Below, piece after piece: positions 13,913 through 22,704 of a stretch of 53,030 nucleotides of DNA. The notes below the pieces were generated by a model that did no database searches, was not told where the DNA came from, and worked only from the letters and a program-made list of their open reading frames with translations. Each line of letters opens with the position of its first letter. The stretch's first letter is position 1. This DNA is from a virus (lineage: Duplodnaviria; Caudoviricetes), in IMG/VR virus record IMGVR_UViG_3300025120_000074, positions 1 through 53,030 of that record; one strand, written 5' to 3'. A program made the position numbers and the translations under genes.

Positions 13913-14208
13913 TAAGCATTTTCCTTTTCCTTTTGCTTTCTCAACTGAAGCTTTGCTTGTTTTGCAAGTCTCACAACTTCAGTCTTACCCATAACTTTAG
14001 CACGTTGTTCCATCACTGTCAAGATTTGAATTTTCCTAGCGTAAGATTTTTTAATCCTCTTGACTTTTGCGATTGTTTCTTTAGCATCTTTTACAGTAGC
14101 AAACTTTATACTCACTGTATCTTTTGGATTCTCATCTGTGTACAGTCTTCTGCCACTACCTTTAGGTTTTTTACCAGTTCCTTTTAGAGGGTCTTTTTTC
14201 TTTGTCAC
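13912..14208 (-). CDS. small basic protein
   Basis: RRLYTDENPKDTV.IKFAT; GTG start; coupled to the next gene. Confidence 0.65.
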   Translation of the reverse strand: MTKKKDPLKGTGKKPKGSGRRLYTDENPKDTVSIKFATVKDAKETIAKVKRIKKSYARKIQILTVMEQRAKVMGKTEVVRLAKQAKLQLRKQKEKENA

Positions 14209-14210
14209 AG

Positions 14211-14336
14211 TTATTTAGCTTTTTTACTTGTTATGCCTTTTAAAACTTTGGCTTGACCTGCGTGTAACTTAGAAGCTTTATTTAAACCCTTAATAACTTT
14301 TTTAACTTTCTTTTTACTTTGATTAGTTAATGCCAT
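14211..14336 (-). CDS. 41-aa basic protein (not in ORF track)
   Basis: MALTNQSKKKVKKVIKGLNKASKLHAGQAKSLKGITSKKAK; TAATG coupling. Confidence 0.6.
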   Translation of the reverse strand: MALTNQSKKKVKKVIKGLNKASKLHAGQAKVLKGITSKKAK

Positions 14337-15593: not shown

Positions 15594-15840
15594 AGTGTTC
15601 TCTCTTCATGTGTGGCTTGTAAACATCCCTAGCTTCTAGCATACCCTCAAGATACATAGCTCTTTCTACGTGATCCAGTGTGTACAGTACTCCAGTGTCA
15701 AGTTGAATCTTCTTTCTAACATAGAATACGTCAGAACGAGGGATGTGGCATCTTCTAAGTCTTACTTCATCTTCATCTGCTAGTGCGTGATAGAACTCTT
15801 CTATTACATTATCACTAATGTAAGTTTTAATTTTGGACAT
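15580..15840 (-). CDS. first gene of the late arm, hypothetical (start revised to ATG 15840)
   Basis: AGGAG upstream of ATG 15840; H.PRSDVFYVR motif. Confidence 0.6.
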   Translation of the reverse strand: MSKIKTYISDNVIEEFYHALADEDEVRLRRCHIPRSDVFYVRKKIQLDTGVLYTLDHVERAMYLEGMLEARDVYKPHMKREHYGDT

Positions 15841-15847
15841 GGTACTA

Positions 15848-15875
15848 GTTATACTCCTAAAGTTTCTTTTGTCAA
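15848..15875 (-). promoter_or_regulatory. sigma70-type promoter, TTGACA-N13-GAG-TATAACT class
   Basis: TTGACA-16-TATAAC; matches promoters at 8-35 and 29867-29894. Confidence 0.65.
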
Positions 15876-15920
15876 CAAGAAACGACAATAAATCTCCCCC
15901 ATCTCTAAAATATATTTTCG

Positions 15921-16010
15921 TTACATTAAGTATACCTTATGTTCTTTAAGTATATACTTATAGGTGGAGGAGATTAGGTATACTTAATGTTACATTAAGT
16001 TACTTTAAGT
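15921..16010. repeat. array of quasi-palindromic ACWTWAWGT motifs
   Basis: tacttaatgt-tacattaagt-tactttaagt in 10-bp phase (15981-16010) plus copies at 15923-15951. Confidence 0.7.
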
Positions 16011-16012
16011 AT

Positions 16013-16040
16013 ATTATACCACGATTATACATTATGTCAA
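16013..16040 (-). promoter_or_regulatory. consensus sigma70 promoter of the late arm
   Basis: TTGACA-16 nt-TATAAT with TGn extended -10. Confidence 0.75.
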
Positions 16041-16448
16041 GCATTAATTTAACTAATATGTAACAAATATAGGTTTTTCACAGTGTATTTCCCAGAGTTG
16101 TTCTTAACATTGCCCCCAGTTGTACATTATGTGGCTGAGAGGCTCTAGGTTGTTCACTGAGTGGGGTCTGGGAGTTATTACATCGTATCATACCTAACGT
16201 ATCTATTCCCTCCTCAGAGGGGATTTACAAGATGCTCTGTGTATTCTGCATAAATGCCTAAAAAATAGGCAATATAATACAACTGCACGTTTTGTATGCA
16301 GAAATACAATGTAGTTAACACTCTGTTTCCCCCTTCTCTGGCAGAGTATGTACATAGTATCTACGTAGGGTAGGGTGGCTCATGCAACCCAGTAGTAAAA
16401 ATACCACAGTGATGCAACATATTGTAGCTTTCAGGTAACACGTGCAGC

Positions 16449-16513
16449 TAAACCATTGATTTTAAACAATATCTTATACAATAATACATTCTATTACGTG
16501 TAAGTTATTGATT
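16449..16513 (-). promoter_or_regulatory. two IHF-consensus sites
   Basis: AATCAATGGTTTA (16449-16461) and AATCAATAACTTA (16501-16513) both fit WATCAANNNNTTR. Confidence 0.5.
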
Positions 16514-16715
16514 TTACTGGTAGTTTTACAGCCATTGCACGAATTTTGAAGTATTCAAGTATAATTTTTTTGTCGCATATATATAGTCATAAAAATAATT
16601 TAAAAAAAAATAAAAATAATTCTTTACATATCTATTTTTTTAAATTAGAACTGTACTCAACAAACAAAAACATTTTAATAACCGCTAAGGCAATCTTTAA
16701 AATAAGTTAGTTTGT

Positions 16716-16783
16716 TAAGACTAAACTAAAAACTTTCATTTAGTATAAAAATGTGAATTATAAGACTAAACACTAAGACTAAA
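16716..16783 (+). repeat. three TAAGACTAAA direct repeats after an A/T tract
   Basis: Exact copies at 16716, 16761 and 16774. Confidence 0.7.
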
Positions 16784-16791
16784 ATTAATAC

Positions 16792-16821
16792 TTGACTAAC
16801 AATACGAATTAAGATTACGAT
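16792..16821 (+). promoter_or_regulatory. early promoter
   Basis: TTGACT-18 nt-TACGAT with AT-rich upstream DNA. Confidence 0.55.
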
Positions 16822-16827
16822 ATAAAC

Positions 16828-17200
16828 AAGCGGTAAGAAAGCGGTAGGTTAGAAATAAAAAGATCTTGTATAGACGCTACAAGCCACTCTCTAAGTGATA
16901 TTAGAAAAGGTACACGCCATTTATTGATTTTGTGGAAACACATGGGCTAACTTTAACGCAATCCTTACGATTGTATTAGGTGTCTTAAAAGGATAATGGT
17001 AAACGTAAAGAGCTAAGGTCAATCAGTCTTTACTACCACAGTGCGAGGGATAATTAAGCCACGCTGTTGTCTATCATAGTTATGGTAACACTATGACAAG
17101 GCTAGTCCAACAGACGTTATCCTTTAGGTGAATATATAAGCCTATAAATAATGATTAGAGGGTGCAAGGCATAGTGATATGATGACAACTTGCATCCTAT
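16828..17200 (+). ncRNA. candidate large structured RNA / 5' leader
   Basis: No ORF of 60 aa or more; at least eight stems seen by eye, including a GAAA tetraloop and a 10-bp closing stem 17159-17168/17189-17198. Confidence 0.55.
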
Positions 17201-17201
17201 A

Positions 17202-17572
17202 GTTTAAATTAAGTATAACCTCTCAAACTTATGATTGGAAATATTATGAATATACTACAAAAATTTAGCGTAAAAATGATTACTAAAAGAACAAGTAGAA
17301 GTCTAAGTAAGCAAGGTCAAAAGCCTGTTTACTTTAACACCCATAAAAATATTAAGGATAGATGGGGTAGCTATATTACTTCTGGTGGTGTGAGTGATAA
17401 GGCTTTTCTTGCACTATGTATGGGTGATCAAACGTCATACTTTCCACTTGAAAGTGTGGCAAAAAAGACACCATTTAAAAACAATGCAAAGACAAGAATT
17501 AATTTTGTACAGCATAAACAATAATAACTTGACAACTATTTAAATTTAATAGAGGTTATACTTAATTTAAAC
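17202..17572. repeat. perfect 22-bp inverted repeat flanking the first early ORF
   Basis: GTTTAAATTAAGTATAACCTCT (17202-17223) / AGAGGTTATACTTAATTTAAAC (17551-17572). Confidence 0.9.
17231..17524 (+). CDS. first early protein, basic, hypothetical (start may be 17246)
   Basis: 97-aa ORF enclosed by the inverted repeat. Confidence 0.6.
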   Translation: MIGNIMNILQKFSVKMITKRTSRSLSKQGQKPVYFNTHKNIKDRWGSYITSGGVSDKAFLALCMGDQTSYFPLESVAKKTPFKNNAKTRINFVQHKQ

Positions 17573-17584
17573 AAGAGGTGTAAT

Positions 17585-17755
17585 ATGACATATACAATAT
17601 TTTTAATTATAGGTATTGATAGAAGTGTGGGTGACGTACAAGAAAGCGTATACGCTGTTTACCATGATTCAGATGATATTGGTGGTGATATACAAGACGC
17701 AATTAATGAGGGTTGGGATGATGTCCAACTTGTAACAAGAGAAGTTGAGGTGTAA
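17585..17755 (+). CDS. 56-aa acidic early protein (not in ORF track)
   Basis: GAGGTG RBS; MTYTIFLIIGIDRSVGDVQ... Confidence 0.6.
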   Translation: MTYTIFLIIGIDRSVGDVQESVYAVYHDSDDIGGDIQDAINEGWDDVQLVTREVEV

Positions 17756-17756
17756 C

Positions 17757-18353
17757 ATGACTGTAAAAAATAGAAATAATATTGAGAGGGTGTTTAACTT
17801 AAGAACACCAGAAGAAGAAAAAGATGGTGTGACATGGTATGCACTAGCACAAGCAGATGCCAGACGCATGGCAATCTATTACAGCATACCCTTAACTACT
17901 GCGGTGGGTGTCATTGCGTCACTATCACCTAACAATAAATGGGAACGCAATGTAATAAATGCTAAGGATTTAATAGAGGGATACTTGAACGGAGAACACA
18001 AGGAAAGTATCAAAGTTAGCACCTACCATGCAATGAAAGACAAGGCATGGTCTATGCTTGAGGATATGTTAGAGACTGATGAGGATATATTGACTAGGCT
18101 TAATGGGCAAAAAATCAAGAGTTTTTACGAGTGTATCATGGGATATGATGCCTGTTGTATAGATGGACATGCCTATAATATTTGGAGATATGAGAGGGTA
18201 GGATTAACCACAGATAAAACCAACATAGGCAAGAAATTATACGCAGAAATACAAGGTGATTATGTGAGGGTAGCTAAGAAATTAGATATGAAAGCCTACG
18301 AATTACAAGCAATAACTTGGGTAGCATGGAGAAGAATACATGGCATTACGTAA
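17757..18353 (+). CDS. HhH-GPD/DNA-glycosylase-like fold protein
   Basis: WY...IASLSP...W..N, G.KI.SF, IDGHA, QAITW; start revised to ATG 17757 after GAGGTG. Confidence 0.55.
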   Translation: MTVKNRNNIERVFNLRTPEEEKDGVTWYALAQADARRMAIYYSIPLTTAVGVIASLSPNNKWERNVINAKDLIEGYLNGEHKESIKVSTYHAMKDKAWSMLEDMLETDEDILTRLNGQKIKSFYECIMGYDACCIDGHAYNIWRYERVGLTTDKTNIGKKLYAEIQGDYVRVAKKLDMKAYELQAITWVAWRRIHGIT

Positions 18354-18513
18354 AGAAAGATTCTGGAGTGTAGTACTATTAGATAAGGAACGCTTAGATG
18401 GTAGCTATATCTATCTAAAAGTTAAGGCTAATACTAAGGCTGATGTACTACATACATTTCTAGATTACTATGAGATAGTAGACGTAAACTTATTTAATGT
18501 GAGGGTAATATAA
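18340..18513 (+). CDS. 57-aa hypothetical (not in ORF track)
   Basis: MALRKERFWSVVLL...; fills the gap, TAATG coupling. Confidence 0.55.
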   Translation: MALRKERFWSVVLLDKERLDGSYIYLKVKANTKADVLHTFLDYYEIVDVNLFNVRVI

Positions 18514-21550: not shown

Positions 21551-21622
21551 ATGCTAGGTAAAGATGATGATCCATGTGATGAGATGATGCCACCTATACC
21601 AAAAAAGAAAGAAGAGAAATGA
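21551..21622 (+). CDS. 23-aa peptide coupled to the recombinase (not in ORF track)
   Basis: GAGGAG RBS; MLGKDDDPCDEMMPPIPKKKEEK; ATGA overlap. Confidence 0.4.
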   Translation: MLGKDDDPCDEMMPPIPKKKEEK

Positions 21623-22704
21623 AATATACGACTAAGGTAAAACTTAAGGATGGCTCTGCTGTCTATCGTTTTAATCCACCCAATGATGCTAAGTCAGCAG
21701 GTGTTGTATCACCTAAGACTTTCCACGATGGGAGACAGGCGAGACATGAAGTACCAAAGCTTGTAAAGATTGTTGATGACTTCAGAAAGGGTAACATACT
21801 TGTTGGTACTCTAGGTGTTAAGAGTAACCTAAGACAGGTGACAGCACACTACCTTAACACTGGACAGTTTAATTCTTTGTCGTCAAGGACTAGGAAGACC
21901 TACGAGTATGGCTTTGCAAAGATCAATAGCACTAAGCTGTTTGCTAGGGAGTTAGGTGACATAACTGTCAAGGCTGTCACATCTGCTCACTGCACAGAAC
22001 TCTATGAGATTTGGGTTAGGAACGTGAGTGTTGACCATGCTAACCAACTGTCAAGAATCTTCTCAGTCCTATTAAACTTCTGTCGTTCCATTGAACTGAT
22101 AGACACCAACCCAATGTCTAGGGTTAAGAAGCGTTCACACACACCTCGCTCTGTAGTATGGACTAAGCCACAGGTAGAGCTATTCATTGAGACTGCCTTC
22201 TCTCAATTTAAGTGGAGAAACATTGGACTACTGGCACTCCTTGCCTACGAGTGGGGACAAAGACCCATTGACATTACTCTACTTGAGTGGTCTAGCATAG
22301 ATTTTGATAAGAAGATGGTAACAATCAAGCAGACTAAGCGTGGTGCTACAGTAATGTTACCCATTGAGGATAAGATAATGGAGCTTATGGTACAACAGTT
22401 AGGTGATTGGGATTGGCAGAAGTATGTTATACCTCACCAGAGACCTTCAGATGGGGCATACAGACCTATACCATCAGGTCAGGTATCTACCCTAGCAAAT
22501 GAGGTTAAGGCTGAGTGTGGGCTACCTTCAGACCTACATATGGGAGACCTACGTAAGACTGCCATCACTGAGTTAATTGAGAGTGGAGTTGATGCACTGG
22601 CAATCATGCACGTAACAGGGCATAAAAATGTACAGAGTCTTAACCCATACAACAAACACAACTATGAGACTGCAAAGTCTGCACTAGATATAAGGAGAGG
22701 GTGA
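21619..22704 (+). CDS. int: tyrosine recombinase/integrase
   Basis: GQRPIDI (R), KQTKRG (K), GDLRKT (R), VTGH (H), LNPY (Y). Confidence 0.85.
   Translation: MKYTTKVKLKDGSAVYRFNPPNDAKSAGVVSPKTFHDGRQARHEVPKLVKIVDDFRKGNILVGTLGVKSNLRQVTAHYLNTGQFNSLSSRTRKTYEYGFAKINSTKLFARELGDITVKAVTSAHCTELYEIWVRNVSVDHANQLSRIFSVLLNFCRSIELIDTNPMSRVKKRSHTPRSVVWTKPQVELFIETAFSQFKWRNIGLLALLAYEWGQRPIDITLLEWSSIDFDKKMVTIKQTKRGATVMLPIEDKIMELMVQQLGDWDWQKYVIPHQRPSDGAYRPIPSGQVSTLANEVKAECGLPSDLHMGDLRKTAITELIESGVDALAIMHVTGHKNVQSLNPYNKHNYETAKSALDIRRG

Follow-up and report, generated by a model that had tools for sequence, protein, structure and literature searches.

A 22-bp inverted repeat around the first early gene of a phage: a candidate long-range RNA stem for processing of the early transcript

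The first small early gene of the uncultured marine phage studied here is bracketed by an exact 22-bp inverted repeat, whose two arms probably pair at long range in the early RNA; the host RNase III would then cut this stem, yielding a leader RNA, the mRNA of the enclosed gene (hereafter, the cargo) and a downstream mRNA. We put the probability of this reading at roughly 55%. The argument for it is mainly comparative, i.e., it is built on the recurrence of such brackets, with other arms and other cargo, in related phages and on the kinds of change that the paired arms have accepted. In the following, the window denotes the whole stretch of DNA that was analysed (53,030 nt).

Genomic Context and Structure of the Repeat

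Judged by CheckV (95%), the IMG/VR virus record that makes up the window is complete or nearly so. Its genes include a tyrosine integrase, a primase-helicase, a family A DNA polymerase and a ribonucleotide reductase, and the closest cultured relatives are the Roseobacter RCA phages CRP-1, -2, -9, -13, -207, and -603, with genomes of ~54–56 kb. Two divergent gene blocks are separated by a 1.3-kb gap (15889–17230). Because a rightward promoter-like site and a leader of ~370 nt precede the bracketed ORF, we regard this ORF as the first gene of the rightward early unit, which contains the following features:

16792..16821, + strand: promoter-like TTGACT-18-TACGAT, a weak match (9/12 consensus positions) and putative early promoter for a transcript with both arms
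16829..17201, + strand: non-coding leader of ~370 nt, without a + strand ORF of ≥40 aa and with TGGGCTAAC at 16943
17159..17198, + strand: predicted last hairpin of the leader, ending 3 nt before the left arm
17202..17223, + strand: left arm, 5' strand of the predicted long-range stem; when the transcript 16829–17660 is modelled, 21 of the 22 pairs reach a probability ≥0.98
17231..17524, + strand: cargo gene for a basic 97-aa ORFan; alternative start possible at ATG 17246
17529..17534, + strand: TTGACA within the motif TT[GT]ACA..C.AT.T, found upstream of the right arm in 8/8 A-family alignment sequences
17551..17572, + strand: right arm, 3' strand of the stem, exact complement of the left arm
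17573..17587, + strand: Shine-Dalgarno (SD) sequence AAGAGGTG (17573–17580) and ATG (17585) with which the next gene begins immediately behind the right arm
17585..17755, + strand: 56-aa ORF, missing from the closest relative (deletion in L005)
17757..18353, + strand: DUF7178 gene (PF23802, E = 9e-39), which in relatives is the conserved anchor following the cassette

The arms are exact reverse complements over 22 bp and enclose 327 nt; with two mismatches, the repeat reaches 28 nt (17196–17223/17551–17578). An exhaustive scan identifies it as the longest exact inverted repeat of the window, the runner-up having 16 nt. Allowing up to three mismatches, the arm occurs in the window at 17202–17223 and 17551–17572 only, and two matches were obtained in none of 100 dinucleotide shuffles. 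The repeat is real and not an assembly artefact, since the independent assemblies L005 and L175 each contain both arms exactly, as does a third one (L176) for the left arm. An earlier note on this DNA had described the exact repeat with its 327-bp interior, the 97-aa ORF and the TTGACA at 17529, all of which is correct; it had also placed the left arm against the last leader hairpin and the right arm against the next ribosome-binding site, and both neighbourhoods hold, the former for a predicted hairpin (17159–17198) at a distance of 3 nt and the latter for AAGAGGTG at 17573–17580 and the ATG at 17585. The minimum free energy fold of 17150–17620 includes the stem (z = −6.5), and the duplex has a predicted energy of −27.7 kcal/mol in the modelled transcript 16829–17660. 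If the TTGACA at 17529 is taken as a −35 element reading into the right arm, its spacing to −10-like hexamers varies between arm classes.

Promoter-like sites as such are not enriched across the region (15 found vs. 12.8 expected); in relatives of several clades, a TTGAC[TA] promoter is seen by eye after an A-run at the equivalent place. The leader alone folds no better than shuffled sequences (z = −1.3), with the same outcome on either strand, and the + strand is free of terminator-like sites from one arm to the other. At gathering scores, no Rfam family is found anywhere in the window; Rfam scans by E-value of the window region and seven related loci gave weak matches at chance level only, and no tRNA genes were found. 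The leader may be an undescribed phage leader RNA. Its motif TGGGCTAAC is common to the window, L089 and the class C loci described below. More generally, TGGGCTAAC..AGGTGT..AAAAGG and GGTCAAT recur across arm classes A, A', and C, in the leader of the window (16829–17201) and in L089, L052, L050, L040, L059, and L070. In L176, and also in a variant of DNA run X3, the leader has been exchanged as a unit.

Some further features were noticed on the leftward side of the gap. A sigma-70 promoter that matches the consensus perfectly (TTGACA-16-TATAAT, plus a TG upstream; 16040–16013, − strand) points toward the leftward genes, and a 15-bp exact hairpin-type inverted repeat (15923–15937/15976–15990) lies between this promoter and the first leftward gene. 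A 420-bp stretch (13914–14334), which holds two small − strand ORFs of 98 and 41 aa, is missing from the 96%-identical relative L005.

The 97-aa cargo protein has only three relatives (83–98% identity) among 5.8 billion proteins, can be assigned to neither a Pfam nor a PHROG family, is without a match when phage records are searched by tblastn, and shows no phmmer link to the other cargo families described below. It is present in the Atlas from residue 6 on; the Atlas search was without a match. Between the window and L005, the gene differs by six synonymous and two non-synonymous codons. A DNA search with 15800–18400 against 50,697 phage records gave no match. Downstream, 15-bp direct repeats (17575–17589/17747–17761), each with a ribosome-binding site and an ATG, flank the 56-aa ORF, and a form lacking this ORF is also found in the independent DNA run X3 (joint 17575>17742).

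Recurrence of the Bracket in Related Phages

The arms of the window are shared by few close relatives. L005 carries both arms exactly and in the same orientation; together with L004, L007, and L087, it represents a single viral contig, which is ~96% identical to the window. L175, a metagenome contig of 95% identity, likewise has both arms exactly. In L176, the left arm is identical at 22 of 22 positions and the cargo DNA at 91%, the contig ends within the right arm, and everything upstream of window position 17199 has given way to an unrelated sequence. The arms have thus remained unchanged in these relatives, while the enclosed unit differs by 2.4–9%. The replacement leader of L176 itself ends with a long-range inverted repeat of ~14 bp (~1296–1312/1453–1468) that adjoins the conserved left arm. 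A metagenome scan for relatives returned two loci, a scan of viral contigs with the alignment of class G cargo yielded none beyond those of the set, and in L008, the next-closest DUF7178 relative, no helix exceeds the shuffles.

For a broader comparison, two sets of 80 loci each were collected, one from the surroundings of DUF7178 gene relatives and the other from those of relatives of the leftward 102-aa gene. Among these, 92 have a DUF7178 match, two of them with too little upstream sequence, so that 90 loci and the window, 91 in total, were scanned for the best ungapped helix with a loop of 100–900 nt in the 900 nt upstream of the DUF7178 start; G.T and A.C mismatches were penalised alike. 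In 35 of the 91 loci, which include three loci of one contig as well as L054 (a repeated palindromic hairpin, later dropped), the helix scores above 33, the maximum of 273 mononucleotide shuffles. A seed-based scan of the 79 loci L088–L166, i.e., the window's own clade, added class G (six loci), class H (L102), L134, and L146. Not counted were L054, L115, L116, L120, L127, one pair of L134, and L149, which are repeated palindromic hairpins or unclear pairs. L115, L116, and L120 contain multiple copies of a TCTCGGAAATTCCGAGA-like palindrome over the early region, and these palindromes may be an operator or terminator family.

The helices fall into at least nine arm classes of unrelated sequence, with arms of 20–28 nt and interiors of 101–426 nt, and they sit between a promoter-proximal leader and the next ribosome-binding site. 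The unique interiors share a common layout: 33 of 36 hold one main + strand ORF (67–122 aa), three are without an ORF, and none has its main ORF on the − strand. The cargo ATG follows 8–37 nt downstream of the left arm. After the right arm, an SD-like motif and a start codon, as defined by a permissive pattern, are present in 35 of 36 unique loci, the SD at a median offset of 1 nt and the start codon 6–25 nt away. The earlier note had proposed a search for compensatory repeats around different cargo genes in relatives, and this search was positive: the at least nine arm classes enclose eight cargo families. The bracket is evidently dispensable, given that 56 of the 91 loci have no such helix and that a convincing helix is lacking in all six cultured relatives inspected (CRP-1, ICBM2, P12053L, SIO1, CRP-207, and CRP-9).

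Probable Selection on Pairing in the Transcript

Within classes, the arms are better conserved than the sequence between them. Mean pairwise column identity is 0.97/0.99 in the two arms vs. 0.81 in the interior for class B, 0.89/0.87 vs. 0.77 for class C, 0.91/0.95 vs. 0.50 for class A', and 0.92/0.96 vs. 0.51 for class D. Where the arms do change, pairing tends to be kept: among 18 unique arm pairs of six classes, eight helix columns contain compensatory double changes. In class C (eight units aligned with MAFFT), 94.3% of the cells are standard pairs, vs. 27–50% when the partners are slid by one to three columns, and both sides have changed in 4 of 24 pairs. The class C covariation score of 0.182 (shuffled mean, 0.099) lies above 500 of 500 shuffles, a count that should not be read as a probability, as the sequences are related.

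Covariation alone would also fit a repeat that is maintained at the DNA level, and the discriminating test is therefore the type of transition mismatch. A G.U-type mismatch is tolerated only in + strand RNA, and an A.C-type mismatch is the G.U of the opposite strand. With an unbiased helix definition, the within-class pairs comprise 17 of G.U type, four of A.C type and five others. When the single-member classes are added, 22 G.U-type stand against eight A.C-type mismatches (one-sided binomial p = 0.008), although the events are not fully independent, some having occurred repeatedly at a TATAAT-like element in the left arm. In total, eight A.C-type and eight other mismatches are tolerated in the helices. 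Judged from these alignments, the higher conservation of arms than of interiors, the compensatory changes and the excess of G.U over A.C favour the view that selection acts on pairing in the + strand transcript.

Class C deserves separate consideration, because its left arm coincides, by eye, with the spacer and −10 element of a near-consensus sigma-70 promoter (TTGACA-16/17-TATAAT). The left arms with this promoter are those of L046, L052, L055, L058, L067, L011, L050, and L063. In six of the eight, the third T of TATAAT faces a G that is kept in the right arm, forming a U.G pair, so that the complement of the right arm reads TACAAT and not TATAAT. Messages started at the left-arm promoter would lack the left arm, and only read-through from the upstream promoter would form the stem. 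The class C right arm was also considered as an antisense promoter and rejected on inspection, as it has no matching −35 element, which leaves complementarity as its only evident role.

Proposed Processing of the Stem

On the preferred reading, the early RNA would start at the putative promoter ~400 nt upstream of the left arm and, if it continues as one transcript, would carry both arms. In the cell, these would pair into a duplex of 22 bp (up to 28 bp) and thereby close off the cargo gene as a loop. Near-perfect duplexes of at least ~20 bp are substrates of bacterial RNase III, and it is for this reason that a cleavage step is proposed. Three RNAs would result from a cut: the ~370-nt leader, the message of the cargo, its ends being paired, and a downstream mRNA, the 5' end of which would fall just ahead of its ribosome-binding site. 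A search of the window revealed no RNase III encoded by the phage, so that any cleavage would be performed by the host enzyme. An RNA processing stalk had been one of two interpretations offered in the earlier note, and it has gained comparative support from the recurrence of unrelated helices, their covariation, the excess of G.U pairs and the fixed placement between leader and ribosome-binding site, with cleavage as the predicted step.

Three metatranscriptome runs were available for the region. They contain contigs at 16951–17200 (X18) and 17312–17534 (X19) with a depth of 2–3, and expression of leader and cargo is possible. The RNA contigs stop at 17200 and 17534, just outside the arms, but contigs cannot show RNA ends, the depth is low, and DNA unitigs break at the same left edge; these stops are therefore uninformative on processing, and uncovered stretches likewise carry no weight. 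Several observations speak against the cleavage model: the promoter match in the window is weak (9/12), class C has a promoter inside the left arm, mismatches are tolerated in the helices, the arms double as mosaic junctions (see below), many related loci do without a helix, and the phage has no RNase III gene.

If cleavage is left out, the same structure could still be useful. An uncut stem might loop out the cargo, keep the leader beside the downstream ribosome-binding site, and/or tune translation or stability via pairing of the untranslated regions. We consider this rather unlikely, even though all of the pairing evidence fits it equally well. In L022 and L024, an apparent empty site is present, in which the leader hairpin is directly followed by the ribosome-binding site and the DUF7178 gene. 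At the same place, their relative L019 (2807–2974) carries a 25-bp repeat around 118 nt in which there is no ORF, and the contrast between this bracketed insert and the empty site is compatible with a stem that acts by its structure alone. The right arm of L019 resembles the pre-existing 5' untranslated region of the empty site (L022 ~2950–2990, and L024). An uncut stem would also agree with the position of the next gene's SD, which is flush with or partly inside the helix and has a mean unpaired probability of 0.37 in the modelled transcript. However, a closing stem needs far fewer than ~20–28 pairs, yet all classes keep that length, and the escape of such a duplex from RNase III, which cuts duplexes of this kind, would require a special reason.

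Exchange of the Enclosed Gene

The cargo proteins form eight unrelated phmmer clusters, none of which has a Pfam or functional PHROG assignment or a match to a transposase family, and the arms coincide with the junctions of a mosaic. L088 and L089 share their arms and the flanks just inside them, while the cargo of L088 clusters with class G and that of L089 with class H; thus, the ORF has been replaced between conserved flanks. On the outside, it is precisely at the edge of the left arm that L176 switches to a different leader, and DNA run X3 contains a variant joint 16830>17201 together with one unitig that spans 17201–17575. All of this would be expected if the arms were DNA-level handles, at which homologous recombination swaps accessory early genes, with RNA pairing being incidental. 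A DNA-level role would indeed explain the junctions equally well. However, there is no need for recombination handles to be inverted relative to one another, and a purely DNA-level role does not lead one to expect compensatory changes or strand-dependent mismatches that favour G.U, which makes this explanation improbable as a complete account.

Exchange and RNA processing can also be combined. As the same design occurs with other arms and other cargo in related marine podoviruses, the stem and its immediate flanks constitute a portable bracket. A tentative extension of the RNase III reading, which we regard as possible, is that the arms define a portable cassette at the RNA level: the host RNase III would excise, with paired ends, the mRNA of whichever small accessory gene is located there, and the arms and flanks would serve gene trading as well. 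Excision of the cargo would leave the leader and the downstream operon intact, and the paired ends may stabilise the excised message or allow its circularisation. Marine podoviruses could in this manner trade first-early genes, possibly with functions in host takeover or anti-defence.

The second interpretation of the earlier note, an invertible DNA segment flipped by a site-specific recombinase for phase variation of the first gene, has found no support and appears highly improbable. The perfect flanking repeat and a tyrosine recombinase gene (Phage_integrase family, 21619–22704) had made it attractive, but none of the 36 unique interiors is inverted and 33 are co-directional, L005, L175, and L176 all have the same orientation, no strand-change joint exists among 110 contig pieces of X3 (in which rare forms can be missed), and the recombinase is encoded 4 kb away and resembles an ordinary phage integrase. 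Hardly credible, finally, is a small transposable element, MITE-like or IS-like, with the arms as its terminal inverted repeats: such repeats do bound a short unit, and filled (L019) and empty (L022) sites exist, but the element would be single-copy in the phage, its arm occurs in one other viral contig, that of a close relative, and in none of the bacterial and archaeal species genomes that were scanned, no target-site duplication is seen on inspection at the arm ends of any class, and the cargo proteins match no transposase family. Single orientation, the lack of strand-change joints, single copy number and the lack of target-site duplications thus make inversion and transposition unlikely.

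Comparison with Known Systems

A close structural parallel to the RNase III reading is found in the processing stalks of rRNA, i.e., the long-range stems that flank 16S and 23S rRNA and are cut by RNase III. As in these stalks, distant complementary segments bracket a functional RNA and pair into a duplex of more than 20 bp, the predicted cleavage of which would release the enclosed molecule and its neighbours. The near-perfect duplex of ~20 bp that is typical of the stalks has its counterpart in the 22 perfect pairs of the window (28 with two mismatches), and pairing is kept by compensatory and G.U changes as would be expected of a stalk. In contrast to rRNA, the enclosed RNA is a small protein-coding early message of a phage, and the arms differ completely between relatives.

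A functional parallel is provided by the early mRNA of T7, a polycistronic transcript that host RNase III splits just upstream of ribosome-binding sites. The cleavage proposed here would yield separate messages in the same manner. However, the T7 sites are local hairpins between genes, whereas here one long-range helix spans a whole gene, and a single cut would therefore define both gene ends. A link between T7 infection and RNase III is also made in PMC4858673.

Pairing between the untranslated ends of one message has been described in bacteria. A short 3'-UTR motif of the Staphylococcus aureus icaR mRNA pairs with the message's own SD, which it masks, and thereby makes an RNase III substrate (PMC3868564), and a 5'/3'-UTR interaction is described for the hbs mRNA (PMC5737220). 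The likeness is that both untranslated ends of a single message pair at long range and create an RNase III substrate, a predicted one in the present case. Unlike the icaR motif, the arms lie 8–37 nt before the cargo ATG and adjoin the SD of the next gene, have ~20–28 bp, and recur as the bracket of a cassette. Moreover, pairing with the message's own SD, as in icaR, is not the rule here, the cargo SD lying outside the left arm in most classes.

With regard to gene exchange, the PeSL cassettes of T4-type phages are comparable. Regulatory motifs, sigma-70-like promoters among them, flank small non-essential ORFans in these phages and coincide with the boundaries of gene swaps (PMC2839356); the cassettes are also treated in PMC4122927. 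Both systems have conserved motifs that flank ORFan genes at swap boundaries. The PeSL elements, however, are units of a promoter and a local stem-loop terminator that occur repeatedly along the genome and recombine with each other, unlike the single inverted pair around one gene that is found here, for which RNA pairing is indicated. Each genome carries one inverted pair, a local + strand terminator is lacking, and a clear left-arm promoter exists in class C only.

The invertible segments of the Hin/Gin/Cin systems and the fim switch are short and flanked by an inverted repeat. The likeness to the window ends with this layout, as the segments compared here occur in one orientation only and their arms are not conserved across relatives as recombinase sites would be.

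Long-range stems that excise a whole RNA are textbook knowledge for rRNA, and so are local RNase III hairpins for T7. For one duplex that brackets a protein-coding early gene and recurs with different arms and cargo in uncultured marine phages, no description was found in full-text searches of the literature outside subscription journals. The repeat bracket belongs to none of the above families as they are defined. If the RNase III reading is true, the bracket would offer a simple sequence signature for finding fast-evolving first-early genes, ORFans in the present case, in metagenomes; it would represent a route by which phages add accessory genes without disturbing downstream expression, and could be used as a natural insulator part for synthetic operons. 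The portable cassette, if it exists, would be the RNA-level counterpart of integron or moron cassettes.
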